A DNA stretch of 64,000 nucleotides, taken from Chloroflexota bacterium (GTDB taxonomy: Bacteria; Chloroflexota; Anaerolineae; Anaerolineales; VGOW01). How positions within the stretch are numbered: the stretch's first letter is position 1; every line of letters begins with the position of its first letter. A program made the translations under genes and the position numbers. The notes beneath the pieces were generated by a model. It made no database searches. It worked only from the letters and a program-made list of their open reading frames with translations, and was not told the origin of the DNA. Positions 5,524 through 55,518 of the stretch are shown here, in pieces. The stretch spans positions 14,217-78,216 of the forward strand of contig JACPWC010000071.1 of the NCBI GenBank assembly GCA_016197225.1, in the 5' to 3' direction.

Positions 5524-5528
5524 GAGTA

Positions 5529-5600
5529 AACAGTAACCAGTGAACAGTCAGCAGCAGTGTTCACTGTTCACTGATGACTGTTCACTATTCACTCCTCATG
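5529..5600. repeat. GTTCACT/GTGAACA heptamer array with internal inverted repeat
   Basis: aaacagtaaccagtgaacagtcagcagcagtgttcactgttcactgatgactgttcactattcactcc. The pair cagtgaacag / ctgttcactg forms an inverted repeat. Confidence 0.8.
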
Positions 5601-6776
5601 CCTTTGCTCTCCTCTCTCACCGTCCTCTCTCTCGAACAAGCCACGACTCTCCCGTTCCTAACTCAGCGTTTAGCGCGGGAAGGAGCGCGAGTGATTCGCA
5701 TCGAGACTCCGGGGCGCGGCGACCCGAACCGCTATGTGGGCAAAAAGTTCCTCGATGAAGACGGCATGGCCAGTTACTTCCTGCCGAACAACTGCGGCAA
5801 GCAAGCCATCACCCTCAACCTCGCCGAAGCCGAAGGCCGCTCAATCCTTCAATCTCTAATCTCTAATCTCCCCGTAGACATCTTCGCCACCAACAACCGC
5901 CCGTCCAGTTATCACAAACTTGGCATTGACTACGAGACTATCAAGACCATCCGACCAAACATCATCTGGCTCGGCACCACCGGCTTTGGCCCGGACTCGG
6001 ACGAAGCGGCCTACGACCCGGTTCTGCAAGCCCGCGCCGGTTGGATGGACTTGACCGGCGAACCGGACGGCTCACCGCTCGTCTTTGGCTTGCCGATGGT
6101 TGATCTTGGCGCATCTGAGCACGCTTACGGCGCGTTGATGAAAGCACTGTACCGACGCGCCGTGACTGGCGAAGGAAGCCGAATTGATATTTCCATGTTC
6201 CGGTCAACCGTCTCCTGGATGGCAAGCCCGATCATGCTCACCGCCCTCGGCGAACGGGTGACCCGACGCGGCAACACTCACCAGTTTTTCGCCCCGGCCT
6301 CGGTTTACCCGACTCGCGATGGCTACGTTTACGTGGCCGTCGGCAATGACCGGCAGTGGGAGGCCATCACCAAACTGCCCGGCTTCGAGTCGCTGGCCGA
6401 CGAAACGTATCAACGCAACGCGGGCCGAATCGCCGATGTGGAGAAACTGAACCGGCGACTCGCCGACTGCACCCGAACCATGAGCGTCGCCGATCTCGCA
6501 ACCGCCCTGAACAGCATTGGCGTGCCAATTGCCAAAGTGAACACGCTCCGAGACGTGCTGGAAGACCCTCTGCTGAAAAAGGAATTTACCAACGTTCGCG
6601 ATGAGAGAAGCGGCACAGAAGTGATCCTGCCACCGCTGGCTGAGGCCGGGGTAATTCGTGAATTGCCCCTACGCTTCCCGCCGCGCCTCGGCGAACACAA
6701 CGAGGCGATTTACGGCGAAGCGCTCGGCTTCGATTCCCGAAAAATCGCCAGCCTGAAAGAACACGGTATCATCTGA
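5598..6776 (+). CDS. family III CoA-transferase (CaiB/BaiF-like)
   Basis: LTVLSLEQATTLPFLTQRLAREGARVIRIE is an N-terminal CoA-transferase III pattern, with GFGPDS and a ~390-aa length. ATG 5598 was chosen over the longer ORF start at 5574. Confidence 0.8.
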   Translation: MPLLSSLTVLSLEQATTLPFLTQRLAREGARVIRIETPGRGDPNRYVGKKFLDEDGMASYFLPNNCGKQAITLNLAEAEGRSILQSLISNLPVDIFATNNRPSSYHKLGIDYETIKTIRPNIIWLGTTGFGPDSDEAAYDPVLQARAGWMDLTGEPDGSPLVFGLPMVDLGASEHAYGALMKALYRRAVTGEGSRIDISMFRSTVSWMASPIMLTALGERVTRRGNTHQFFAPASVYPTRDGYVYVAVGNDRQWEAITKLPGFESLADETYQRNAGRIADVEKLNRRLADCTRTMSVADLATALNSIGVPIAKVNTLRDVLEDPLLKKEFTNVRDERSGTEVILPPLAEAGVIRELPLRFPPRLGEHNEAIYGEALGFDSRKIASLKEHGII

Positions 6777-6826
6777 TCACCGTTCACCGTTCACTGATCA
6801 CTGATTACTGTTCACTGGAGACTGAG
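6774..6826. repeat. GTTCACY/GATCACT heptamer array
   Basis: tgatcaccgttcaccgttcactgatcactgattactgttcactggagac covers the stop codon of the CoA-transferase and ends with a GGAG before ATG 6828. Confidence 0.8.
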
Positions 6827-8907: not shown

Positions 8908-9105
8908 CACCGCAAAGACGCAAAGAGCGCAAAGAAGATCACAAAGTCTCTTTTGTTTATCTTAGCGGCCTTCGCGGGCAGTGTCCCTGTATAGGGCAGG
9001 TGTGTTTTTTTTGTGCGCGAAAGGCCTTGAAAACAAGCTGTTTCGCAAGCGCCAAAAGGCTACCTGCCCGTTATAGGGCCACTACCCCTTCGCGCCTTCG
9101 CGGTG
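8908..9105. repeat. CGCAAAG-type palindromic intergenic element (MITE/REP-like)
   Basis: The left end is caccgcaaagacgcaaagagcgcaaagaag. The right end, cttcgcgccttcgcggtg, is its approximate reverse complement. There is an internal partial inverted repeat (ccctgtatagggcaggt / acctgcccgttataggg). Confidence 0.6.
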
Positions 9106-14598: not shown

Positions 14599-14656
14599 GA
14601 GAGAAAAGAGAAAAGAGAATTGGAGAATTAGAGAATTCTCTAATCCTCCAATTCTC
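14599..14656. repeat. palindromic form of the GAGAATT/GGAGAAT heptamer array
   Basis: The 19-nt arms are gagaattggagaattagag (14615-14633) and ctctaatcctccaattctc (14638-14656). They match 18/19 as an inverted repeat around AATT and are preceded by gagagagaaaagagaaaagag. Confidence 0.8.
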
Positions 14657-23092: not shown

Positions 23093-26059
23093 TCACCATT
23101 CTGCAAGTTTCCAGATTTCCGGTTGCCATTTGCTGGTATTCGCGCCAACGCCGGCCTCGACGCCAATTTCGGCGAACAGGACGACGGCTCGTTTGAGATG
23201 TTGCATGGCGGCTTCGGTTTGGCCGTCGGTGTGTAAAAGATCGGCCAGGTTGTTGTGCAGAGCCGCTTCGCGGTGACGGTCGCCCTGCGAAGCGCACAAC
23301 TTCAAGGCCCGTTCAGTGAGCGTGATTGCAGTCGCCGTCTGTTCATTAGCCCCAAAGGCCAGCGCCAGATTATTCAATGCCGCCGCCTGCGCGCCCGTGT
23401 CGCCCAAAGTTTCGGCCAGCGCCAGGCTACGCTCAAGATGAAGTTGAGCAGTCGGGAGGTCGGCCTGACTGCTGGCGAGAATGCCGAGAATGTTGTGCGC
23501 TTGCGCCAGCGCCCGCTGGTCGCCGCCGGCCTCGGCCAGCGTCAGCGCCTGCCGAGCCAGATCGAGCGCCCGCTCTGTTTGACCTCGATGATGAGCGGTG
23601 AGACTCCAGTCGGCCAGAACACGGGCGCGGCCACCTTGAGAACCGTCCACGCCGAACGCCGCCAGCGCGGCCTCAAAATGGCGCTCGGCCAGTTCCCCAT
23701 CACCACGTCGTTCGTAAACATTGCCCAGTTTGTGTTCCAGTTCGGCCAGCGCCTCGAGTGAGCCGAGCGCCGCCGCCGTCTGGTAACTCGTCAGGGCAAC
23801 GCCGTATTCGCCGGCCAGCGTTTGCAGATCGCCAATCGCTTCGTGCAGGGCGGTGGGATCAGGATGGCCTAAGGCCAGCGCCGAGCGATAGTGCGAGAGG
23901 GCTTCGGCATTGGCATACAGCTTGCGGGCGTGGTCGCCCGCCAGTTTGTAGTAGTGGGCGGCTTCGGCGTTGCGACCGCCCAGCCGGTAGTGCAAGGCAA
24001 CCTGGCCGGCGAGCGGCCCGGGCGGCGTTTGAGCGCGGGCGCGCGAGGTGAGGGCTTCGGCCACGCGCCGGTGCAGGAGCCGGCGGCGGGCGAGGCTGGT
24101 TTCGTCGTAAACCAGGGCGCGCAGTTTGTCATGGCCGAAGTCATACGTCAGCGCGCCGTCGCCGCCGCCCACTTCGTGGACGAGACCGCGCGCGATCAGA
24201 GATTCCAGTCCGGCCACCGTTTCTTCGTCACTGCGGCCACTGGCAACTTGCAGAGTGTCGAAGTCAAACGAGCGCCCGATGACGGCGGCGGCGCCGAGCA
24301 ATTGTCTGCCGGCGTCGTCAATTATTGCCAGGCGCGAGTGAAGCAGGCCGCGCACACCTTCGGGCAGAGGCCACTCGGCCTCAGGCCCGCCGCCGCCCAG
24401 CGCCGCCAGATATTCGACGAGAAAGAGCGGGAGGCCTTCGGTCTCGTGGTACAGCCGCTCCGCAATCCGGCTTTCGGGCGCGGACTTCATCGTTAGTTGA
24501 ACCAGTTCTGCGACTGCGGATTGGCTGAGCCGCGAGAGCGAGAGCAGGTGGGCCAGCCCGGCCCGTTGCGATTCGGCCAGCGCCTGACGCAGGCGATGCC
24601 CGGTCGGCACCTGCTCGTCGCGCCACGTTCCCAGCAGGCACAGGCGATGGCCGCGCAGGCGGCGCGCCAGGTAGGCGAAGAGGTCCAGCGAGGCCTCGTC
24701 AATCCAGTGGAGGTCGTCCAGAAAAACGACGGTGGGCAAGTCGTTTCCCAACGCCAGCAAAATCTGGGTGATGCTTTCAAAGAAGCGGCTTTGCGCGCCG
24801 GGGCTGTCGAGAGGCGGTGTGGGCGGCAGGTCGCTCCTCAGGTTAGCCAGGTCAGGCAACAGCCGGGCGGCCTCGCTCAACCAGTGTGGCTCCAATGACT
24901 CAAGCCGGGCGGCAATGGCCGGTTGCCTCAGCGCCGATTGCAGGGCTTCGAGGAAGGGGCCATAGGCCAGGTTGCGTTCGCCTTCGTAGCAACGGGCGGG
25001 GAGCGTGGTCGCGCCTTGAGCCTGCGCCCGCTCGATGAAGGCCTCTGCCAGTCGCGTCTTGCCGATCCCAGCTTCACCCTCTATCACGATCAACGCGCCG
25101 TCCGCGCTCTGAGAGGCATACTGATTTTGCAAGGCGGCAACTTCGGCGGAACGACCGATGAGGGGGAGGTTAGAGGTTAGAGGCTGGAGGTTAGAAGTTA
25201 GAGGTTGGAGATTGGACGCCTGAACTACGGCGGGAAGTTGGACGCCTGAACTACGGCGGGAAGTTGGGATTTGGGATTTGGGGCTTGGAGTTTCCGTCGT
25301 CGGGCGGTTCTCTTTGATAGCCTCGTACAGCCGCGTCGTCTCTTCCAGCGGCGGCACGCCGAGTTCTTCGTCAAGAATTCGCGCACACTCCTGATACTGG
25401 CGCAGGGCGGCGGCGCGTTGCCCGGCGCAATCATACAACGACATGAGCCAGCGGTGAGCCGGTTCGTGCATCGGGTCGAGGGAGAGCCAGCGCCGAGCGT
25501 GGGCAATGGCGGCGTCCACTTCGCCGGCTGTGCTGTGACACTTCACCAGCCGTTCCAAAGCGTCGGCCAGTTCGCGGCGCAGTCCTTCACTCTGAAAAAA
25601 TTGCCAGTCGTCGAAGGCGGGGCTGTCGCGCAGGCTGAAGCCGGCCAGGAAGTCGTCGTGGTAAAGCGTCACTGCCTCAGAAAGGGGATGGACGCAACGC
25701 GGGCAGGGGTCGTGAGGCGGGTGACCGTGAGTCCGGCAATCGGCCAGGCGGCGGTGAAACTCGGCCACGTCCACCCAGGCCGCCCCCGTCTCCAAATTCA
25801 CCGCCTCCCGCTCAATCCTCAATCCTTCTCCATCCAGCGCCTTATTCAACACCGAGAGAGTGCGGCGCAGGGCGGCGTGCGCTTTGGCCTCGTCGGCGTC
25901 AGGCCAGAAGAGGGTTGCCAGGCGCTCGCGGCTGTGCAGTTCGCCCGTCACCGCCAGGTAGACGGCGAGGGCGGTGGCTTTGCGCGTGTCCACTTCGATG
26001 GGTGCGCCGTCGAGTTCGACGCGGGGCGAGCCGAGGAGGTGAAAAGCAAGCCGGGGCAT
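23093..26059 (-). CDS. SARP/BTAD-family transcriptional activator fused to an AAA/STAND ATPase and TPR repeats (AfsR-like)
   Basis: N-terminal LLGSPRVELDGAPIEVDTRKATALAVYLA is a winged-helix motif, and a BTAD region follows. The Walker A is IEGEAGIGKTRL, and the C-terminal TPR-like repeats are rich in LGNVYERRGD/AHNILGIL patterns. Confidence 0.85.
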   Translation of the reverse strand: MPRLAFHLLGSPRVELDGAPIEVDTRKATALAVYLAVTGELHSRERLATLFWPDADEAKAHAALRRTLSVLNKALDGEGLRIEREAVNLETGAAWVDVAEFHRRLADCRTHGHPPHDPCPRCVHPLSEAVTLYHDDFLAGFSLRDSPAFDDWQFFQSEGLRRELADALERLVKCHSTAGEVDAAIAHARRWLSLDPMHEPAHRWLMSLYDCAGQRAAALRQYQECARILDEELGVPPLEETTRLYEAIKENRPTTETPSPKSQIPTSRRSSGVQLPAVVQASNLQPLTSNLQPLTSNLPLIGRSAEVAALQNQYASQSADGALIVIEGEAGIGKTRLAEAFIERAQAQGATTLPARCYEGERNLAYGPFLEALQSALRQPAIAARLESLEPHWLSEAARLLPDLANLRSDLPPTPPLDSPGAQSRFFESITQILLALGNDLPTVVFLDDLHWIDEASLDLFAYLARRLRGHRLCLLGTWRDEQVPTGHRLRQALAESQRAGLAHLLSLSRLSQSAVAELVQLTMKSAPESRIAERLYHETEGLPLFLVEYLAALGGGGPEAEWPLPEGVRGLLHSRLAIIDDAGRQLLGAAAVIGRSFDFDTLQVASGRSDEETVAGLESLIARGLVHEVGGGDGALTYDFGHDKLRALVYDETSLARRRLLHRRVAEALTSRARAQTPPGPLAGQVALHYRLGGRNAEAAHYYKLAGDHARKLYANAEALSHYRSALALGHPDPTALHEAIGDLQTLAGEYGVALTSYQTAAALGSLEALAELEHKLGNVYERRGDGELAERHFEAALAAFGVDGSQGGRARVLADWSLTAHHRGQTERALDLARQALTLAEAGGDQRALAQAHNILGILASSQADLPTAQLHLERSLALAETLGDTGAQAAALNNLALAFGANEQTATAITLTERALKLCASQGDRHREAALHNNLADLLHTDGQTEAAMQHLKRAVVLFAEIGVEAGVGANTSKWQPEIWKLAEW
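25165..25290. repeat. composite repeat block inside the SARP gene: GGTTAGA heptamers, a 26-bp tandem duplication and TTGGGAT heptamers
   Basis: ggaggttagaggttagaggctggaggttagaagttagaggttggagattgg is followed by ttggacgcctgaactacggcgggaag twice (25212-25237 and 25238-25263), then ttgggatttgggatttgggg. On the minus strand it encodes SNLQPLTSNLQPLTSNLP. Confidence 0.85.
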
Positions 26060-26158: not shown

Positions 26159-26614
26159 ATGGTCAAAGAACAGAGTCGAGAAACGACAATGGGCGATGCG
26201 GCGGTGGACGGCCTGCTGGCCGGTGGAATGGCCGGGGTGTTGATGGCGGTTTATTTGGCAGTGGCCGGCCTGACCTGGGGAGACGGAATCGGCGTGACGC
26301 TGGGCCATTTCGATCCAGGGGCAACCGCCTCGCCGGTGGTGGGCGTGATCTCCCACCTGGCCGTGTCGGGCGTGTACGGGGCGTTGTTCGGGGTCGGGTG
26401 GCGGCTCGTTGCCCGTCTCTGGCAACGTTTGTCGGCCTATGCCTGGCTGGGCGGGCTGGCCTTCGGGCTGGCGCTGTGGGGGCTGGCCGGCGTCGTTCTC
26501 CTGCCGGGTGCGGCCTCAGCCCTCAGAGCCGTGCCGCCTCTCCATTTTGTCATCGCCCACATTGTCTACGGCTTGACGCTTGGCATCGGATTGTCCATGC
26601 GACAGCATGAATGA
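26159..26614 (+). CDS. small polytopic membrane protein
   Basis: About four hydrophobic helices (e.g. GLLAGGMAGVLMAVYLAVAGL). No family recognised. Confidence 0.5.
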   Translation: MVKEQSRETTMGDAAVDGLLAGGMAGVLMAVYLAVAGLTWGDGIGVTLGHFDPGATASPVVGVISHLAVSGVYGALFGVGWRLVARLWQRLSAYAWLGGLAFGLALWGLAGVVLLPGAASALRAVPPLHFVIAHIVYGLTLGIGLSMRQHE

Positions 26615-26713
26615 CTGGCTAAGACCTGCCAGGTCTGGTCGAAAGTTCGGCAAAACTTAAAGCTGGCAAGACCCGGCAGGTCTTCCAGATAGTTGCTCAG
26701 GAGGCAAACTAAA

Positions 26714-27694
26714 ATGATCGCAAACATCCTCATCTTTCTCGTTCTGATTGTTCTCACCATCGGCGCGGGCTGGCTGACGTGGCGGGTCGTGCGGGCCAAA
26801 CGGCTGTGGGTGAAGATCGCCGGCGGGCTGGGAGCCGGACTGCTCACGCTGATTCTGACCGCCGTCTCGTTCGCGGGCGGCAAAGGCATCGCCATTCTTT
26901 ATTTCCCCGGCGCAAAACCCGCGTCCGATCTCAAAGTGGAAGGCACGCCGGAGCAAATCGCGCGCGGCGAGTATCTAGCGGACATCGGCTGTGTGGGTTG
27001 TCACGGCCAGGTGGATGCCGACGGAAAGCCTACCGAAAAGTTTCCGCTCTCCGGCGGCTATAACATTGCAGAGGCGGAGGGCTTCGGTTTTGTCGGTCAA
27101 CTCGCCACCGAGAACCTGACCCCCGGCGGCAAGCTGGCGAGCTACAGCGACGGCGAACTGTTCCGCGCCATCCGGCACGGGGTGAATAAAGACGGCCAGT
27201 CGCTCGGTTTCATGTCCCTCCTGCCCTTCGGCCAGATGAGCGACGATGATACGAAGGCCGTCGTCGCCTTCCTGCGCTCTCAGCCCGCTGTCACCCTCAG
27301 CAACCCAACCGGCGATAACATCAACTTCGTCGGCGCTCTGCTGTTTGGTGCGGGCATGTTCCCCAGCCCGGAGCCAAAACCAGATTCCATCACCGCGCCG
27401 CCCGCCGGCCCGACGGCAGACTACGGCAAGTACGTTGCCACCTTTGGCGAGTGCCGGGGCTGTCACGGCCCGGATGTCACCGGGGTGGAAGCCTCCTCGT
27501 TAGGCCCGGCGGTTCCCAACCCGCGCCCGTTCATATCCACCCTGACGGCTGAACAGTTCGTCGAAACCATGCGCAGCGGCACGCGGCCCAACGGCGTTGC
27601 CTTCCCCGAAACCATGCCCTGGCAGAACGCCTCGAAGATGAGCGACGACGATCTGGCCGCGTTGTACGCCTATCTCACCGCGCCGGTTAAGTAA
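26714..27694 (+). CDS. membrane-anchored dihaem c-type cytochrome
   Basis: N-terminal TM helices and two CxxCH motifs (CVGCHG, CRGCHG). AGGAGG lies 9 nt upstream of ATG 26714. Confidence 0.8.
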   Translation: MIANILIFLVLIVLTIGAGWLTWRVVRAKRLWVKIAGGLGAGLLTLILTAVSFAGGKGIAILYFPGAKPASDLKVEGTPEQIARGEYLADIGCVGCHGQVDADGKPTEKFPLSGGYNIAEAEGFGFVGQLATENLTPGGKLASYSDGELFRAIRHGVNKDGQSLGFMSLLPFGQMSDDDTKAVVAFLRSQPAVTLSNPTGDNINFVGALLFGAGMFPSPEPKPDSITAPPAGPTADYGKYVATFGECRGCHGPDVTGVEASSLGPAVPNPRPFISTLTAEQFVETMRSGTRPNGVAFPETMPWQNASKMSDDDLAALYAYLTAPVK

Positions 27695-27752
27695 GGGCGA
27701 AGCATGCTTCGCCCCAACAGACCCGAAGGGTCTCCAAGACCCTTAGGGTCTT
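27695..27752. repeat. triple hairpin block (terminator/REP-like)
   Basis: The first is gggcgaag-catg-cttcgccc, a perfect 20-nt palindrome. The other two are agaccc-gaa-gggtct and aagaccc-tta-gggtctt. Confidence 0.65.
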
Positions 27753-27784
27753 CAACACACTCAACTCAAAAAGGAGACTTCACA

Positions 27785-28219
27785 ATGAACAAACTCAAGT
27801 GGTGGTTTCGCATCGTCGGAGCGTTCTATCTGCTCCTGGCGCTGATGAACATGTACGGCATGTTTATCAACCGTCAATTTTTCGCCAGCGTAATCCCGTT
27901 CCCCGCGGATGAGTTCGCAGTCAAGGCATTTGTGGACGGGTGGTCTCCCTTCGCATTCGAGATATTGGGGATAGCCACGTTCATGCTCTGGGCGTCGCGT
28001 GACCCGCTCAAGTATCTCGGCGCGGTCTGGCTCATCGTCTGGCTCGAACTCCTTCACGGGGTTGTGGATGATGTGTACTTGATTGCCAACGGGTATGACG
28101 CCGTGGGCTACCTCGTTTTCATCGTCGTTCACCTGATCATCATCGGCACGGGGGTCATGTTCACGCGGCAGGCGTCAGTCCAAACACCGGCTCGCGCATC
28201 AGTTCCGATGAAGGCTTAG
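27785..28219 (+). CDS. small membrane protein (four TM helices)
   Basis: ATG 27785 is preceded by aaaggagac. The N-terminus MNKLKWWFRIVGAFYLLLALMN is hydrophobic. Confidence 0.55.
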   Translation: MNKLKWWFRIVGAFYLLLALMNMYGMFINRQFFASVIPFPADEFAVKAFVDGWSPFAFEILGIATFMLWASRDPLKYLGAVWLIVWLELLHGVVDDVYLIANGYDAVGYLVFIVVHLIIIGTGVMFTRQASVQTPARASVPMKA

Positions 28220-33906: not shown

Positions 33907-34015
33907 CCTTGCGCCCTTGCGTTAAAAGCTTTAACGCAAAGTCGCAAAGACGCCAGGGCGCAAAGAAATAGATAAAAGACCTTTGCGTTCTCTGCGTCCT
34001 CGCGTCTTTGCGTTA
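33907..34015. repeat. CGCAAAG-type palindromic element
   Basis: ccttgcgcccttgcgttaaaagctttaacgcaaagtcgcaaagacgc ... gcgtcctcgcgtctttgcgtta. The terminal motifs are TAACGCAAAG / CTTTGCGTTA. Confidence 0.75.
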
Positions 34016-36771: not shown

Positions 36772-38025
36772 ATGAAAAAACTGGAAGTTGTTCCTAACCC
36801 CTGGCTCCGCCTCATGCGCTACGCGTGGGTTGTGACGGCTGTGCTGGCGTTCGGCATTCTCATCGCCGCCCTGCCACACTACTACGCCAGAGTCCTGGTG
36901 GAGGCGGCCAACCAGCTCGTGGACGGGCCGCCCGAGTTCGTCTTCGCGATGGATTTCATCGGCACGTTTGCTTCCGTTCTCGCCGCGGTCGTCTCCCTTG
37001 CCGTCGCGGTTCTGCTGTTCAGGCGCAAAGCGCGCGACGGCATGGCGCTGTTCCTGTCATTCTTTCTGCTCGGCTACGGCACGATGATGGCGGGGCCGCT
37101 GGAAGCGCTTTTTGATTTTGGCGGCCCGGGCAGTGAGTTTGCCCTGCTGGCCCAGACCGGTCTGCTGACGGCGCCAATGATTGCCTTCGGTTTCCTTTTT
37201 CCGAACGGGAGATTTGTCCCGCGCTGGAGCCGGGGCCTCCTGGTCATCTCGCTTTTTCTCCTGCCACTGCTGGCCTCGACGCCGGTGAGCCAATGGTTTT
37301 CGACCCCCACGCCCGCGACCCTCGTGGGCGAATTCGGTCTGGGGGCGCTCCTCCTCGCGGCGCTCGGCGCGCAAGTCCACCGCTATCGCCGGGTGTCGAA
37401 TTTCGACGAGCGCCAGCAGACGAAATGGGTGCTGTATGGCTTCGTGCTTTTCTTTGCCCTGATAGTTGTCTTGACGATCCCGTACTCGATCTTGGAGGCC
37501 ATCCCGAAAGGCAGGCGCATTCCCTGGTGGGGGCCTCTGAACGGCGCGCTGTGGTGGCTCTCGTTGTGTGTTCTGCCCGTTTCGATTGCGCTGGCCATTC
37601 TGCGGCATCGCCTGTACGACATTGACATCCTCATCCGCCGCACCCTGCAATACTCGGTGTTGACCGGCCTGCTTGCCTTCACCTACTTTGGCAGTATCGT
37701 CGTCCTGCAAAGTATTTTCACAGCAGTCACCGGCCAGCAGTCGCCGGTCGTCCTCGTCCTCTCCACTCTCGCCATCGCCGCCCTGTTCTTCCCGCTTCGC
37801 AACCGGGTGCAAGATTTCATTGACCGCCGCTTCTTTCGCAAAAAGTACGACGCGGCTAAAGTCATCGCCGAGTTCGCCGCCACCTGCCGCGACGAGACGG
37901 ATTTGGATAAACTGACAGCACGGCTGGTGGAAGTGGTAGACGAGACGATGCAACCTGAAAGTGTGACGCTGTGGCTAAAAGACTCTAACGCAAAGCCGCA
38001 AAGGCGCGAGGGCGCAAAGGAATGA
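36772..38025 (+). CDS. polytopic membrane protein, paralog 3
   Basis: HRYRRVSNFDERQQTKWV, LRHRLYDIDILIRRTLQYS, DRRFFRKKYDAAKVIAEFAATCRDETDLDKLTARLVEVVDETMQPESVTLWLKDSNAKP. It starts 3 nt after the kinase stop. Confidence 0.75.
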   Translation: MKKLEVVPNPWLRLMRYAWVVTAVLAFGILIAALPHYYARVLVEAANQLVDGPPEFVFAMDFIGTFASVLAAVVSLAVAVLLFRRKARDGMALFLSFFLLGYGTMMAGPLEALFDFGGPGSEFALLAQTGLLTAPMIAFGFLFPNGRFVPRWSRGLLVISLFLLPLLASTPVSQWFSTPTPATLVGEFGLGALLLAALGAQVHRYRRVSNFDERQQTKWVLYGFVLFFALIVVLTIPYSILEAIPKGRRIPWWGPLNGALWWLSLCVLPVSIALAILRHRLYDIDILIRRTLQYSVLTGLLAFTYFGSIVVLQSIFTAVTGQQSPVVLVLSTLAIAALFFPLRNRVQDFIDRRFFRKKYDAAKVIAEFAATCRDETDLDKLTARLVEVVDETMQPESVTLWLKDSNAKPQRREGAKE

Positions 38026-38060
38026 AAAGAATCTTTGCGACCTTGCGTCTTTGCGTTAAA
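37986..38060. repeat. CGCAAAG-type palindromic element overlapping the last codons and the stop of paralog 3
   Basis: taacgcaaagccgcaaaggcgcgagggcgcaaaggaatgaaaagaatctttgcgaccttgcgtctttgcgtta. The TGA stop at 38023-38025 lies inside the element. Confidence 0.8.
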
Positions 38061-42599: not shown

Positions 42600-42936
42600 C
42601 ACACTATCCACAAGCGTGCGCCAGGCAAACTCAACTGCGATTATTGACTTGCGCGGCGAGATCAATTCCTTTGCCGAAGAAGTTCTGAACAACGCCTATA
42701 CCGAAGCCAACCAGGCCCATCCTAAAATTATCCTGCTCAACTTCAGCGGCGTAGACTACATCAACAGCACCGGCATCGCCCTCATCGTCGGCCTGCTGGC
42801 GCAAGCGCGCAAGTCGGGCCAGCGGTTGTTCACCACCGGCCTGAGCAGTCACTATGTCGAAATCTTCCAGATCACCCGGCTGTCCGATTTCATGAACATC
42901 TATCCCGACGAGGCCAGCGCCCTCGCGGCCCAGTAA
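42589..42936 (+). CDS. STAS-domain anti-sigma-factor antagonist
   Basis: 115 aa. IIDLRGEINSFAEEVL...LNFSGVDYINSTGIALIVGLL has the conserved phosphorylatable Ser context (INSTG). Confidence 0.85.
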   Translation: MPNNTLSTSVRQANSTAIIDLRGEINSFAEEVLNNAYTEANQAHPKIILLNFSGVDYINSTGIALIVGLLAQARKSGQRLFTTGLSSHYVEIFQITRLSDFMNIYPDEASALAAQ

Positions 42937-43033
42937 TTTTCGATTTAGGATTTTAGATTTTTGATTACGGATATGACGGCTCCCTCCCGACGGAAGCGGT
43001 TGTCAATCCAAAATCCCCAATCCGAAATCCAGA
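42937..43033. repeat. imperfect inverted arrays of GGATTTT/GATTTAG-type heptamers
   Basis: The left arm is ttttcgatttaggattttagatttttgatt. The right arm is caatccaaaatccccaatccgaaatc, roughly 70 percent complementary by eye. Confidence 0.6.
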
Positions 43034-47365: not shown

Positions 47366-47520
47366 AATGGTGTGGTTGCTTACAGGGTGAGGTGTGGTCT
47401 GATTCCGAATGTGGGATATTATACCGCTCAGTGTGGGTAACATCTTGTAGAGGGGTGTTGGCCTGTAGAGCAACTTATCGAGTGGCTTTCCCAGGCACAA
47501 GCTTGGGCATATAATTCAGC

Positions 47521-48651
47521 GTGATGGTATCCAAACATAAGCTAGAAGAAGTAACAGCCAAGAGTCTCCGTCGGAAGATACTCGCGCATTTTAAGCAGGT
47601 AAAACAATCCGACTCGGAGGAGACAAAAGATTCCCTCCGCGCTTTGCATGAGCCAGCCGTTCAAGTCGAACTGCTCAAAAACCAAAAGTGGATTAAGGCT
47701 AATTATCCCAAGTATTCTAAGTATTTTGCAGACGGCATTGATATGGCCCCTGCAAAAATTAAACCTATTCTGATAGAAGTCAATGACGAGCATTGGGCCA
47801 ATCTTTTTCGTCTTGCACGGCTAACGTGGTCTTTACCATTTACACGGGGTTACGGCAGACGGCTAAGATATGTTTTACTGGATGAAGCCAACGAAAAATT
47901 AATTGGCGTTCTTGGTCTACAGTCCCCTCCACTTGATTTTCCTGTACGTGACAAGCTATTCAACTACCCGGAAGGGCGAAAAATTGAGCTTGTAAATCAA
48001 ACGATGGATATATACACGCTAGGCGCAATCCCCCCTTACAATCGGTTGTTGGGCGGGAAATTAGTTGCGCTGACCGCCGCATCAAACGAAGTTAGGCAGG
48101 CTTACAGTAAAAAATACACCGGGGCAGTTACCGAAATTGATAAACGGACTTTGCCAGCAAGACTCGTTGCCCTCACTACAACAAGCGCCTATGGAAGAAG
48201 CAGCATCTATAACAGACTAAACTACAACAACCGTGCCATAGCATATTCAATCGGTTACACGGAAGGATATGGCAGTTTCCATCTCGCGCCTTTGTACCCT
48301 TTGGTCTGCGAGTTTCTAGAGAAATCAGGAGAAGTTATACGGGGCGGCTTTGGGGTTGGCCCTCGCATCATGTGGCAAAACTACAAACGGGTTTTTAGCC
48401 TGCTTGACCTGCCAAGCCAATTACTCAAGCATGGCGTAAGGCGCGAGGCTTTTCTGTTTCCACTAAGTTCTAATCTAGAAAACTATATGAGCGGAAAAGC
48501 ATCTCGCCCCGTTTACTATCACCAATCGTTTCAAGACCTAGTAGATTGGTGGTGCGAACGGTGGCTATTGCCGAGAGCCGACAGAGTCGACGGTTGGCAC
48601 GCTTGGGATAAAGAACAAATTGAGCATTTGCTCACTTTGAAGAAATCATGA
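47521..48651 (+). CDS. DUF4338-like protein (the domain found in Druantia DruA), first gene of a three-gene operon
   Basis: RGYGRRLRYVLLDEANEKLIGVLGLQSPPLDFPVRD ... IYTLGAIPPYNRLLGGKLVALTA ... LTTTSAYGRSSIYNRL follows the DUF4338 pattern as I recall it. The region is AT-richer than its flanks. Confidence 0.6.
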   Translation: MMVSKHKLEEVTAKSLRRKILAHFKQVKQSDSEETKDSLRALHEPAVQVELLKNQKWIKANYPKYSKYFADGIDMAPAKIKPILIEVNDEHWANLFRLARLTWSLPFTRGYGRRLRYVLLDEANEKLIGVLGLQSPPLDFPVRDKLFNYPEGRKIELVNQTMDIYTLGAIPPYNRLLGGKLVALTAASNEVRQAYSKKYTGAVTEIDKRTLPARLVALTTTSAYGRSSIYNRLNYNNRAIAYSIGYTEGYGSFHLAPLYPLVCEFLEKSGEVIRGGFGVGPRIMWQNYKRVFSLLDLPSQLLKHGVRREAFLFPLSSNLENYMSGKASRPVYYHQSFQDLVDWWCERWLLPRADRVDGWHAWDKEQIEHLLTLKKS

Positions 48652-49790
48652 ATGCTAATTTCGACCGCCCTTTTGCCGATTTGCCATCGGCGCTTGTTGA
48701 CGAAGTGCTACAGCGCACTCAGGAAGTGGGAAAAGCCCTTCTGGACTCATTCCATGAATTGCAATCACAGAAGGCCGCCCGCCGCAATCAACTGACAGAC
48801 TCAAAGCTATTGGGCCGCGAATCTGATTTTGAGTATGGCATCATCCCGACAACTTGTGGAATAGATGGAGCATTTGCCATTGAGCGATTATTGGCTATTG
48901 ACTTGATAGCGGTGGCAGCGGTTGCTATGGAGGGACTGACCCCGCCGTCAGAAAACCGTTTCTGGCCTGAACCGCGCCATCAGGTTTTGATTGAAACCGA
49001 GTCGCACGACCCCGACACCGGAACAATAGCGAGAGCCTTGATGATGGGGATGGAGTTAAGCCTAGCCGTACAAGCCCCTCATGAAGTTGTTTTTCTTGAT
49101 GGGTCGCTGACCACTCCAATCATCTTCTTCAATCAAGCACTGAACAAAATACAGGAAGCAGAACATTTGAAAACTTCGCAGGAGTTTCTGGCCCGTGCGA
49201 AGGACATTTTGGAAGCCTATCAGGCAATACTCAAAGCGCACCGTTCCGACAAGTATTGGGTGGCTATCCCTAAATACACTACTCGTCGTGAAATAGGAGA
49301 AATATCGCAGTGGCCAGAGTCACAAGATGACCGTTCTATTTTGACTGGCATCCTAGAGCCAGGAGAAATTACCCAACCAGTTGAGTTGAAAAAGCCTGAA
49401 AAGCCTTGGCATTTGAATACTAACCCTATTAAGGCCAAGGGTGTGGCGGAACTCGCCGACGACATCACAAATCGCTTGTATGAAATTCAGGTGGTGTATT
49501 ACCGGCCATATCCTTGGTTGCCTGCTTTGCGCCTTGAAATGAGTCGCGCGGTTGCCAAAACCCCCGCTAGACTTGCAAGCGTGTTACATGCTATCAAACA
49601 TCAATGCGGCGCACCCGCAATGATGGAACCTTACCCGCTTTATATGGCTGACCGTATGGTTAAGTCGCTTGCAACAGCCATCCCAACGTTTAGACAAATT
49701 ACAAGCCAGCACATGGCCGAGGCATATCAAGGCGATGTCGCAGATATATTCCTTGGGCTTCACGGATATCGAACTGAAACAGGTAGATGA
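48648..49790 (+). CDS. nurA: NurA-like nuclease
   Basis: GIDGAF (Asp73) and VVFLDGSLTTP (Asp151) match the NurA catalytic DG/DGSL motifs. ATGA overlaps occur at both gene boundaries. Confidence 0.65.
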   Translation: MNANFDRPFADLPSALVDEVLQRTQEVGKALLDSFHELQSQKAARRNQLTDSKLLGRESDFEYGIIPTTCGIDGAFAIERLLAIDLIAVAAVAMEGLTPPSENRFWPEPRHQVLIETESHDPDTGTIARALMMGMELSLAVQAPHEVVFLDGSLTTPIIFFNQALNKIQEAEHLKTSQEFLARAKDILEAYQAILKAHRSDKYWVAIPKYTTRREIGEISQWPESQDDRSILTGILEPGEITQPVELKKPEKPWHLNTNPIKAKGVAELADDITNRLYEIQVVYYRPYPWLPALRLEMSRAVAKTPARLASVLHAIKHQCGAPAMMEPYPLYMADRMVKSLATAIPTFRQITSQHMAEAYQGDVADIFLGLHGYRTETGR

Positions 49791-51622
49791 CTATGACACA
49801 CGATACTTCTAGCCACGTTGACAAACTGATAGACCAGTCTGAGCGAATCGGAGTTATAGGTTCGCCATCTTCAACGAATGAGTTGGCCCTAGACATTATG
49901 GGCGGGGCAGTCAGCAAAAAACTCGTTGGTGAGTTGGCTTTATTGCGGTATCTGCAAGATAACAGTCCTCACTATGCCCTCGGCCAAATCACCGAAGTGA
50001 CGTTGCGAAACGTGTGGCACGAAGACCCTACGATGCGGAGTCTCATTAGGCAACGCGGGCGTATTGACGCTGTTAGCGAACGCCAAGACACCCATCAAGG
50101 CGAAATGCTCATCAGTGCTGTGTTTGCCGGAGGAGCCAATGGTTATAGGCCAAGCATTCTTGGCACAGTTCCAGCCACCGGAACGCCCATTCATTTAGTT
50201 GATGATGGCGTACTCAATGAACTGCTATCACCTTATCGACAGCAGTTGTTTTACCTCGGCAAGGTATACGGTTCTACTCCCAACCTGCCCTTATGGTTTA
50301 AGCATTTTGACACAGGGCCAGATGGAGCAGGCGAGGCCTATCACCTCGGCATCTTCGGCAAGACTGGCTCAGGCAAATCAGTTTTGGCGAAAATGATATT
50401 GCTGGCCTATGCGCGTTATCCAAAGATGGCTATGCTGGTCATTGACCCGCAGGGAGAATTTGCAAAGGAAGCCAAAGGCGAGTCGGTGCTTGGGCAATTC
50501 ACTTTACCGACTAAAACCGTACTCAATCAACTCAACAAGTCAACCCAAGTTTACAGCGTCCGCGACCTTATACTCGACCGATGGGAACTCTTTGAGCAAA
50601 TACTTACTGAGTCGCGATTCTTTCGAGAACTTCAAATTATGACTCGCGACAAGGCGGAGTTAGCGTCCGGCCAACTCATTTTGGAAATGCAGAAGGCCAA
50701 GTTAACTCTGGCGAAGTTGCATGAGCGAAGCAGCTTTGACCGCGCTTGGGCATTACTAAAACAGGATAAGGTGCAGAACAAAATCTATGCAAAGGAAGGA
50801 GCAGCGGCTGAGAGATTCGCTGAAGCTATACAAGAAGCCGACCCTGATGAGATATATCGAACAATCTGGCTACCTGTTGCTCAACTTTTCAGGGAAGACC
50901 GAAAGAGTGCGCGGAAAGTTGAAGCCCTTTTGCGCGGCTTATTTGACCCAGAGAAAGACCGCCGTCCTCTTGTAGTAATTGACCTGTCAATTGAGCAGGC
51001 TATATCGCTGGGTGGTAGTAGCAGTTTAGGGCCATTGTTTAACGAAGAAGCGCAATCCGAGCAATCCGTAGAGGTGCTGTGGAACGAGACAATCCAGGCT
51101 TTGGTGATTAAGCGTCTGCTGGAGGGTATTCGCAGAACCGCTGAAGAAGCCTACAAACAGAACCGAAGTCTCAATACACTTGTCTTGATAGATGAAGCAC
51201 ACCGACTCGCCCCACGCGAAGAACCTGAAAATGACCAGAAAAAAAGCGTTAGGGGCATATTGATTGACGCAGCCCGAACCACGCGCAAGTATGGCGTGGG
51301 CTGGATGTTCATAAGTCAAACCTTGTCTAGTCTGCATCGGGAGATTCTGGAACAATTGCGTATTTTTTTCTTTGGCTTTGGGTTGGGCATGGGGTCAGAG
51401 TTCAAGGCCCTCAGCGAGTTAGTTGGCGGGCGAAGCAAAGCCCTTGACCTGTATCAATTATTCCGCGACCCTCACTCATCGTTTGATACATCATCGCGAG
51501 AATATTCATTCATGACGATTGGGCCAGTATCGCCTTTGTCCTTTTCGGGAACGCCTTTATTCCTGAGCAGTTTCAATAAGTCAGACGACTTTTTGAAGGC
51601 GAATGGCTTGGATAAGCCATAG
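49787..51622 (+). CDS. herA: HerA/DUF87-family hexameric ATPase (FtsK-HerA superfamily)
   Basis: N-terminal barrel-like region (IGVIGSPSSTNELALDI...ALGQITEV), Walker A GIFGKTGSGKS, Walker B LVLIDEAHRLAP, and RKYGVGWMFISQTLSSL. Confidence 0.8.
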   Translation: MTMTHDTSSHVDKLIDQSERIGVIGSPSSTNELALDIMGGAVSKKLVGELALLRYLQDNSPHYALGQITEVTLRNVWHEDPTMRSLIRQRGRIDAVSERQDTHQGEMLISAVFAGGANGYRPSILGTVPATGTPIHLVDDGVLNELLSPYRQQLFYLGKVYGSTPNLPLWFKHFDTGPDGAGEAYHLGIFGKTGSGKSVLAKMILLAYARYPKMAMLVIDPQGEFAKEAKGESVLGQFTLPTKTVLNQLNKSTQVYSVRDLILDRWELFEQILTESRFFRELQIMTRDKAELASGQLILEMQKAKLTLAKLHERSSFDRAWALLKQDKVQNKIYAKEGAAAERFAEAIQEADPDEIYRTIWLPVAQLFREDRKSARKVEALLRGLFDPEKDRRPLVVIDLSIEQAISLGGSSSLGPLFNEEAQSEQSVEVLWNETIQALVIKRLLEGIRRTAEEAYKQNRSLNTLVLIDEAHRLAPREEPENDQKKSVRGILIDAARTTRKYGVGWMFISQTLSSLHREILEQLRIFFFGFGLGMGSEFKALSELVGGRSKALDLYQLFRDPHSSFDTSSREYSFMTIGPVSPLSFSGTPLFLSSFNKSDDFLKANGLDKP

Positions 51623-51678
51623 AGAGTCAAACCATAGTATGGAGTAGCCTACCAATTGCCCCAGGATAGGAGTTCGCT

Positions 51679-51897
51679 ATGACCCTTGCAGAAATTCTCC
51701 CCACCGTCCAGCAACTGCCGGCGCAAGACAAACTCAGGCTGATTCGTATTCTCGCTGAAGAACTGGACGCCAAAACCGAGGCTGTTTTTCCATTTCAACC
51801 CAACAGGATTTACTATCTGCCCACTCCTTACAATTCGTTTGGAACTGGCCGAAAACTGATGGACGCCATGAAGCTGGCTGATAATCGCAAGAACTGA
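51679..51897 (+). CDS. small addiction-module-component-like protein (72 aa)
   Basis: ILPTVQQLPAQDKLRLIRILAEELD resembles the N-terminal helix of putative addiction-module antitoxin components. AGGAG lies upstream. Confidence 0.45.
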   Translation: MTLAEILPTVQQLPAQDKLRLIRILAEELDAKTEAVFPFQPNRIYYLPTPYNSFGTGRKLMDAMKLADNRKN

Positions 51898-54806: not shown

Positions 54807-55499
54807 ATGAAGCAGTTCTTCTCCCTCGACCCCGACGTCAAAGTCCTCCTCCCCGACGGCAGTACCCGCCGCCTGACGGATTATCTTTTCCCCAGCGCCC
54901 TGCTCATGCTGGCCGCGTTGATGCTGATGATCTCGATGTTCCTGCCCTACTGGAGCATGACGATGACAGCCCCGCAGTATCCCAAAGGCCTGAAGGTGGA
55001 TGTGTACGTCAATCATCTCGAGGGCGACATGCGCGAGATTGACGAACTCAATCACTACCTGGGCCTGCCGCCGCTCGACGAGGGCGGCCAGTTTGAACGC
55101 TCGATCTCCATTTTCTCGATTGTGGCCCTCGGCCTGCTGTTGATCGCCGGAGTGTTCATTCACAATCAATGGGCCGGCGTGCTGGCCCTGCCCGTCCTCG
55201 GTTTCCCCGTCGTCTTCGTGGCCGACCTCTGGTACATCCTTTATCACTACGGTCACAGCATTGACCCCGACTCGGCGCTGGGCGACGCTATCCAGCCTTT
55301 CACCCCGCCCATCATCGGCATTGGCAAAGTCGCCCAGTTCGGCACTGTCGCCAATTTCACCGCCGGCTTCTACCTGGCGATTGCCGCCATCGTCGTGATG
55401 CTCGTCGGCCTGTGGTTCCACCGCGCCGCCTACAAACCGATTGTGGACGCCCGCAAGAAAGTGGGCAGTGATCAGTTGCCAGTTATCAGTAATTCGTGA
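54807..55499 (+). CDS. integral membrane protein in the nosB position of clade II nos clusters
   Basis: 230 aa with four or more hydrophobic helices, located directly between nosZ and nosD. The family assignment rests on position only. Confidence 0.5.
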   Translation: MKQFFSLDPDVKVLLPDGSTRRLTDYLFPSALLMLAALMLMISMFLPYWSMTMTAPQYPKGLKVDVYVNHLEGDMREIDELNHYLGLPPLDEGGQFERSISIFSIVALGLLLIAGVFIHNQWAGVLALPVLGFPVVFVADLWYILYHYGHSIDPDSALGDAIQPFTPPIIGIGKVAQFGTVANFTAGFYLAIAAIVVMLVGLWFHRAAYKPIVDARKKVGSDQLPVISNS

Positions 55500-55518
55500 G
55501 CGACAAGTGAGTCGAGCA

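Follow-up and report, generated by a model that had tools for sequence, protein, structure and literature searches.

A repeat-built, length-variable linker in a Chloroflexota SARP-STAND regulator, with one 26-nt unit read in two frames

A SARP-STAND regulator and the repeats in its linker

We analysed a window of 64,000 nucleotides (nt) from a Chloroflexota bacterium of the order Anaerolineales (contig JACPWC010000071.1, positions 14,217 to 78,216), concentrating on the linker between two domains of a SARP-type regulator whose gene lies on the minus strand at 23093–26059. This open reading frame (ORF) of 988 amino acids (aa) carries, in order, a winged-helix (wHTH) DNA-binding domain, a BTAD domain, the linker, a STAND NTPase and a TPR region. 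The linker DNA is built from repeats whose units are not multiples of three, and it contains one 26-nt sequence that is read in two frames inside a single protein.

The domain assignments rest on several kinds of comparison. The winged-helix domain (aa 1–95; 25775–26059, minus strand) gives no match to Pfam Trans_reg_C at E<=0.01; it is identified by a phmmer match of aa 3–261 to EmbR (2fez, E 6e-5), by a fold match to AfsR and by an AlphaFold2 (AF2) model in which its predicted local distance difference test score (pLDDT) is 83–94. The BTAD domain (aa 96–248; 25316–25774) is recognised as Pfam PF03704 (E 2.9e-22), and the STAND/NOD P-loop NTPase (aa 299–475; 24635–25165) as AAA_16 (E 2.7e-28), with the Walker A motif GEAGIGKT. 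A C-terminal TPR superhelix (aa ~681–966; 23162–24019) is indicated by TPR_12 (E 6e-16), TPR_1 and TPR_MalT, by paired helices with pLDDT >90 across the region, and by TPR proteins of the PDB found with phmmer and Foldseek. The AF2 model, built from a 75-sequence alignment, has a mean pLDDT of 86; its best fold match in the PDB is the STAND-TPR protein 6mfv, and its N-terminal ~257 residues match the AfsR SARP domain (8k60_J and 8hvr_I, template modelling score 0.71–0.73). Because the Pfam domains, the fold matches to 6mfv and AfsR and the sequence match to EmbR agree, the label SARP-STAND regulator is justified: the protein has an OmpR-type wHTH followed by BTAD, and a STAND P-loop NTPase followed by TPRs, as large SARPs do. 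It is like AfsR and other large actinomycete SARPs (PMC10936776, PMC11301090) in domain order, SARP fold, P-loop NOD and TPR sensor, and differs from AfsR in its Chloroflexota host and in the distance of the sequence relation, for which the EmbR match is the measure. The repeat structure of the linker is reported here for this regulator and is not described for AfsR. A protein identical to the 988-aa product, MBI3243238.1, comes from a metagenome-assembled genome (MAG) labelled Chloroflexi bacterium.

The linker itself (aa 249–298; 25166–25315, minus strand) is predicted to be disordered and is unconserved in the alignment. Residues 256–294 have a pLDDT below 50, at around 30, and no secondary structure, with confident models on both flanks, and in the 75-sequence alignment no residue of the linker consensus reaches a majority.

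A sequence-only reading of this DNA had described a repeat-built linker between the BTAD and ATPase domains, with GGTTAGA-type and TTGGGAT heptamers and an exact 26-bp tandem duplication across which the frame stays open. Tandem Repeats Finder (TRF), Pfam and the translation bear this out in both coordinates and units. On the plus strand, TRF reports GAGGTTA repeated 6.4 times at 25166–25210 (81% matches), an exact 26-nt unit repeated 2.2 times at 25212–25267 (100% matches) and TTGGGAT repeated 2.7 times at 25264–25282 (100% matches). The 26-mer array has a TRF score of 112, the highest in the window, and the two linker copies are the only occurrences of its 21-nt core in the window even when three mismatches are allowed; shuffled sequences are expected to contain none.

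Read along the gene strand, the repeats fall into four segments, all on the minus strand. Heptamer block A (25264–25291) is made of the units ACTCCAA, GCCCCAA, ATCCCAA and ATCCCAA, the TTGGGAT type of the plus strand, and encodes TPSPKSQIP. It is followed by the first copy of the 26-nt unit U, CTTCCCGCCGTAGTTCAGGCGTCCAA, at 25238–25263, where translation runs in frame A and gives (T)SRRSSGVQ, and by a second copy with the same DNA at 25212–25237, which is read in frame B as LPAVVQAS(N). The two copies of the duplication, 25212–25237 and 25238–25263, thus supply TSRRSSGVQ and then LPAVVQASN to the same polypeptide from identical DNA; the third frame of the unit holds a TAG. Heptamer block B (25163–25211) completes the series and encodes NLQPLTSNLQPLTSNLP, with a period of 21 nt or 7 aa. 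Across the whole block the protein reads ...ASNLQPLTSNLQPLTSNLPL..., in which SNLQPLT occurs about 2.4 times.

Block B shows how an array that contains stop codons can nevertheless be translated. Its seven units on the gene strand are TCTCCAA, CCTCTAA, CTTCTAA, CCTCCAG, CCTCTAA, CCTCTAA and CCTCCCC. A pure CCTCTAA array would give an in-frame TAA at every third unit; at exactly these positions, in units 1, 4 and 7, the codons are CAA (25205–25207), CAG (25184–25186) and CCC (25163–25165), while units 2, 3, 5 and 6 keep their TAA out of frame. Because the in-frame TAA is replaced in every third unit, the same DNA at 25166–25210 fits a 21-nt period (2.2 copies, 92% matches) better than the 7-nt period.

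A canonical G-quadruplex motif, GGGAAGTTGGGATTTGGGATTTGGGG, lies at 25258–25283 on the plus strand, which is the template strand of the regulator gene, and is formed by the end of the second 26-mer copy, counted along the plus strand, together with the TTGGGAT array. The window holds six such motifs, where about three are expected.

The heptamers of the linker belong to a wider population, as the sequence-only reading had supposed in calling the linker repeat-family DNA: they are of the same kind as the repeats in the window's intergenic spacers. TRF finds about 15 period-7 arrays in the window, mostly in spacers adjoining gene ends. The linker units on the plus strand are GGTTAGA, GGTTGGA, GATTGGA and TTGGGAT, and spacer arrays of these types include GTTAGAGATTAGAGAATTGGAGATTGGAGATTG (958–986), TAGAGATTGGAGGTTGGAGATG (1909–1927) and CAATCCAAAATCCCCAATCC (43004–43030). 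Linker-type heptamers (GAGATTG, GTTAGAG, CAATCCA) are found in the arrays at 958–986, 1909–1927, 14600–14637, 42936–43030 and 57285–57347.

Linker length and reading frame among orthologues

We compared the linker with those of five close orthologues for which DNA was available (L001, L002, L003, L005 and L006; 87–89% protein identity) and with a metagenome contig of the L001 type (L007), which together make a small sample; linker DNA was measured between the conserved anchors ...LYEAIKE and PL[IV]GRS. The linker is 144 nt long in the window, 117 in L003, 105 in L005, 90 in L001, 84 in L006 and 72 in L002, all multiples of three. The DNA of the flanking domains is 82–92% identical on the N-terminal side and 88–91% on the C-terminal side, with merely 12 and 24 gapped columns, respectively. 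The proposal that the block is a hotspot of length variation is therefore upheld, with flanks that are about 90% identical and nearly free of indels, for alleles that are orthologues about 10% diverged and not strains of one population.

The way in which these lengths add up agrees with the further suggestion that the block as a whole had been length-compensated. Given as block A, unit U and block B, the segments measure 46+52+46 nt in the window, 46+26+18 nt in L001 and 42+26+4 nt in L002; each segment alone is out of phase, and the sum of each of these alleles is divisible by three. In a MAFFT alignment the window differs from L001 by one 54-column gap, which corresponds to one extra 26-mer and four extra heptamers (28 nt). 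The L001 linker has two CCTCTAA units and one 26-mer copy, where the window has six and two, and the counts differ again in L002. Block A is the same in L001, and its L002 version (CTTCCAA, CCTCCAA, TTTCCAA) is 4 nt shorter. A one-step duplication of 54 nt was considered and rejected: the extra 28 nt are of the CCTCTAA type and do not duplicate the 28 nt that precede the unit, which are of the CCCAAAT type, so that at least two events are needed.

Each of the two frames that stand side by side in the window is found singly in relatives. The single U copy of L001 and L007 is read in frame A (TSRRSSGV), and that of L002 is read in frame B (PPAVVQASN), as is that of a more distant homologue, L020 (PPAALQASN), whose gene has 66% DNA identity. 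Frame B is probably the older reading of the unit, since the distant homologue also uses it. Unit U is missing altogether from L003, L005 and L006. In their wider context, the frame B peptides of L002 (3805–3822 of its own sequence) and L020 (534–551) read QPPAVVQASNV and QPPAALQASNV in the same frame.

Every simulated single slip of 7 or 26 nt, in either direction, leads to a stop inside the linker and to a product of 271–291 aa, while paired changes (loss of 26 and 7 nt, or loss of 26 nt with gain of 14 nt) restore the full ORF.

Two sister lineages have arrived at repeat-built linkers with other DNA. The linkers of L003 (3751–3867) and L005 (1178–1282) carry different non-triplet units, 8- and 16-mers of CCCACACC. 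Judging from these sequences, the same linker has been rebuilt from differing non-triplet repeats in sister lineages, because the repeats of L003 and L005 are unrelated to those of the window and yet lie between flanks that are about 90% identical. Within these two linkers we also noted 8-mers of GGGAGCAT and HPFTPTPPHTHTP-like peptides. In L020 and L024, heptamers of the ATCCCAA and CTCCAAC types occupy the equivalent linker place.

A scan of genome contigs with the regulator protein returned relatives of at most 60% identity and no close orthologue, and it is from these loci that the family statistics were drawn. In 62 family members the equivalent linker spans 25–95 aa, with an abundance of P, S, T, A and Q, and non-triplet TRF arrays make up 9.1% of the linker DNA as against 0.57% of the remaining ORF, a 16-fold enrichment. 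A scan of metagenome contigs with the 21-nt core of the 26-mer returned a single contig, L007, and no copy-number variants. Neither the window protein nor P0001 had an entry in the contig index, which therefore yielded no further DNA copy of the window allele.

Origin of the linker and competing explanations

We consider it likely that the linker is a sequence-tolerant, disordered tether that evolves by slippage while selection keeps the frame. The block at 25163–25291 joins a SARP module (wHTH and BTAD) to a NOD-TPR module in an AfsR-like regulator, and the amino-acid sequence of the tether would be immaterial so long as the frame stays open and the modules are joined in frame; within the linker, purifying selection would be limited to frame continuity and the avoidance of stops. 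The DNA consists of heptamers of the type abundant in the intergenic spacers of this genome, around a native 26-nt unit. Replication slippage would gain or lose heptamers, each a frame shift of plus or minus one, and, acting between the CCAA microhomologies that flank the unit, it would have duplicated the 26-mer, a shift of plus two. A lone event would truncate the protein within a few codons, and surviving alleles would be those in which paired events sum to a multiple of three, with the stretch between them read in another frame. Relative to an L001-like allele, the net change is 26 nt plus 28 nt, giving 54 nt; frame A serves for copy 1, and the probably older frame B for copy 2. Of the heptamer gain, 21 nt would be frame-neutral, and one 7-nt gain would supply the plus one that cancels the plus two of the 26-mer. 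Point substitutions would have removed the in-frame TAA of every third unit, turning the heptamer array into the 21-nt coding repeat that yields SNLQPLT.

Several points weigh against this account of the linker. Slippage as the mechanism, and likewise how recent the events are, is what we infer from the alleles compared; whichever event came first, a frameshifted intermediate or a single complex event is required. A MAG consensus such as this sequence can also hide variants. Unit U is also better conserved than a purely permissive tether would lead one to expect: between L002 and L020 it is identical at 23 of 26 positions (88%), in genes that are just 66% identical overall, and a 45-nt window over it lies above the 95th percentile of gene windows. 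The linker is perhaps, for this reason, not wholly sequence-independent. Frame B may encode a weakly constrained peptide motif beside the NOD, or the conservation between these two sequences may instead reflect mosaic ancestry.

The sequence-only reading had gone further and proposed slippage-driven on/off variation of the regulator. On this view, the linker would be a true contingency locus at which frequent slippage switches a population between the full-length, ATP-gated regulator and a stand-alone SARP protein of ~270–290 aa that is either off or constitutive. Several observations favour it. The units inside the ORF are non-triplet; every single slip stops in the linker and would leave wHTH and BTAD intact; and the frame-shifting copy-number differences among orthologues imply that frameshifted intermediates must have existed. 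Moreover, in vitro, AfsR is a stronger activator of transcription as the isolated SARP domain than at full length (PMC10936776). Other findings count against the idea. All seven distinct alleles, a small sample, are open through the linker, and a search with the N-terminal 341 aa for truncated alleles returned short or partial proteins only, none of which terminates in the linker. One of these, P0121, represents part of an L006-type allele whose frame stays open across the linker, and another, P0150, diverges within BTAD rather than in the linker and probably stems from a chimeric or frameshifted 1.3-kb contig. The perfect tracts reach just 2.7 copies of 7 nt and 2.2 copies of 26 nt, and the longer array, of 6.4 copies, is only 81% pure and is interrupted exactly where stops needed removal, which argues for selection for the full-length product. 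The NOD is, in addition, essential for AfsR function in vivo (PMC10936776).

In phase-variable contingency loci, as known from Neisseria, Haemophilus, Helicobacter and Campylobacter, the coding repeat tracts are long and pure, and on as well as off alleles occur. The linker shares with them non-triplet repeats in an ORF, where a change of one unit truncates the product, and the copy number is polymorphic among its orthologues. It differs in the shortness or impurity of its tracts and in that only on alleles have come to light; we found neither a long uninterrupted tract nor out-of-frame alleles beside the in-frame ones. The host is also a free-living Chloroflexota, whereas such loci are typical of host-adapted pathogens. 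The proposal of on/off switching at this locus thus finds no support in these data, and we regard it as unlikely. A more specific variant, in which slippage would reversibly turn an ATP- and signal-gated regulator into a constitutively active SARP domain, with the stop-rich heptamers as the truncation point, draws on the analogy with AfsR and appears more doubtful still; if true, it would amount to a stochastic rewiring of the regulator, beyond plain on/off switching.

It could also be asked whether the linker is a fossil intergenic spacer, left when the loss of a stop codon joined a once separate SARP gene to a STAND gene. The heptamer arrays of the window lie mainly in spacers beside gene ends and starts, and those in the linker are of the same types. 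The fused architecture is, however, both old and widely distributed, being found in thousands of full-length homologues in Chloroflexota and Rubrobacter; most homologue linkers are without heptamers, and the window has further heptamer arrays within other ORFs, at apparently permissive places. Because the architecture is old and most linkers lack heptamers, the arrays would have entered or grown in a linker that already existed, and a fossil spacer is highly improbable.

Equally improbable, in our judgement, is an assembly or consensus artefact, even though the window comes from a MAG and tandem repeats are error-prone in assembly. At 52 nt, the structure falls short of the usual length of reads and assembly k-mers, no other combination of copy numbers would leave the ORF intact, the same 988-aa protein is in the database under both NCBI and Logan sources, and the same building blocks recur in orthologues from independent assemblies.

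Three further candidates were rejected: a programmed ribosomal frameshift (the ORF is single and continuous, CCCAAAT lies outside the zero-frame X XXY YYZ register, and no significant fold is predicted), an embedded structured RNA or DNA element (fold z of -0.8, and no Rfam or tRNA matches in the window), and the 26-mer as a dispersed mobile element (outside the regulator linker, neither the window nor 87 loci contain a further copy).

Genomic setting, known systems and significance

An operon on the plus strand (26159–28219) diverges from the regulator gene and encodes a 151-aa protein without a Pfam match, a c-type cytochrome and a BphX-like protein. Among orthologues with contigs that reach far enough upstream, to which the synteny assessment was confined, the first two genes are kept in L001–L003 and L006, and the third position is occupied by a BphX-like protein or F420H2_quin_red. 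The operon is a likely, though putative, target of the regulator.

Heptamer arrays of varied composition lie between genes elsewhere in the window, at 958–986, 1909–1927, 5525–5593, 6768–6817, 14600–14637 and 42936–43030, usually at gene ends or starts, with the units GAGATTG, AGTAAAC, TGTTCAC, ATCACTG, AGAGAAA, ATTTTTG and CAATCCA. Others are translated. A plus-strand ORF of 821 aa (55441–57906) combines NosD (PF05048, beta-helix) with an ATP-binding cassette (ABC) transporter ATPase (PF00005, NosF-like), with a predicted transmembrane segment between them, and is either a fusion or two genes without an intervening stop. A CACTGAT array of 4.6 copies (55602–55633) encodes ATDHSSLFTDHL right after the signal peptide of this NosD-like ORF. 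In its ABC-ATPase part, at 57285–57347, an inverted pair of arrays, (AGAGATG)n followed by (ATCTCTC)n, is in frame and encodes KEMRDERLEIEQSLVSHLSSPI between the Q-loop region and the signature motif; it has the look of an insertion that repeats have brought into a domain which is normally compact. Within a family III coenzyme A-transferase (ORF 5574–6776, CoA_transf_3), AATCTCT repeated 2.9 times (5851–5870) encodes QSLISNL, a peptide that resembles the SNLQ/SLISNL peptides which heptamers encode in two regulator linkers, that of the window and that of L024.

Additionally, octamer arrays of the form (ACGCAAAG)n followed by the reverse complement (CTTTGCGT)n are present at 33934–34013 and 37989–38056, and also at 8911–8935; to judge by their sequence, they could form long imperfect hairpins in intergenic spacers, like repetitive extragenic palindromic or terminator elements. 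A stretch at ~47500–51700 has a GC content of 0.49, compared with ~0.60 elsewhere, and carries the co-directional ORFs 47521–48651, 48648–49790 and 49787–51622; it may have been horizontally acquired.

Heptanucleotide repeats have precedents in other phyla. According to PMC4679880 and PMC4692102, which cite Mrazek et al. 2007, heptanucleotides are the most abundant long simple-sequence repeats (LSSR) in many large GC-rich genomes, with polymerase slippage named as the cause, and known examples include TAACTGA of Beggiatoaceae, GGGAATC of Xanthomonas and GGGGAYT of Nostoc. An ORF tolerates heptamers that contain stops only where the site is permissive, for example at the junctions of modular proteins (PMC4679880, PMC4692102). 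The arrays of the window are like these LSSR and the cyanobacterial short tandemly repeated repetitive (STRR) heptamers in lying head to tail at many loci, mostly intergenic and near gene ends, and in varying in copy number among relatives. As PMC4679880 notes for TAACTGA, some of the units have stop codons in more than one frame and so can persist inside ORFs at permissive sites alone. The TTGGGAT of the linker is similar to the G-tract heptamers known from Nostoc and Xanthomonas. The linker arrays differ from the LSSR and STRR cases in lying in the middle of a regulator ORF, where they have been turned into a 21-nt coding repeat and take part in frameshift compensation. A full-text literature search of limited coverage found no description of heptamers of this kind in Chloroflexota.

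That repeat DNA can be translated in more than one frame is recognised as a source of variation (PMC12871928). The linker is like the compensated frameshifts in disordered or repeat regions described there in that alternative frames are tolerated because the region is repetitive or disordered; it differs in that both frames of one 26-nt unit stand side by side and that orthologues document each single-frame state. The linker is, in sum, a new, clean and fairly ordinary case of a known event, namely coding repeats with compensated frameshifts in a disordered linker.

As such, it is an unusually well documented natural example of how non-triplet repeats reshape a coding region without destroying it, and the locus displays a stop-containing heptamer array turned into a 7-aa coding repeat. 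For practical purposes, annotation pipelines and MAG polishing should leave such repeats "uncorrected", and in this regulator family the linker sequence serves poorly as a phylogenetic or functional marker. The view of how SARP/STAND regulators work is unchanged, unless the improbable phase-variation reading were true. For the family itself, the finding marks the inter-domain linkers of Chloroflexota STAND regulators as preferred sites for the landing and growth of simple-sequence repeats.

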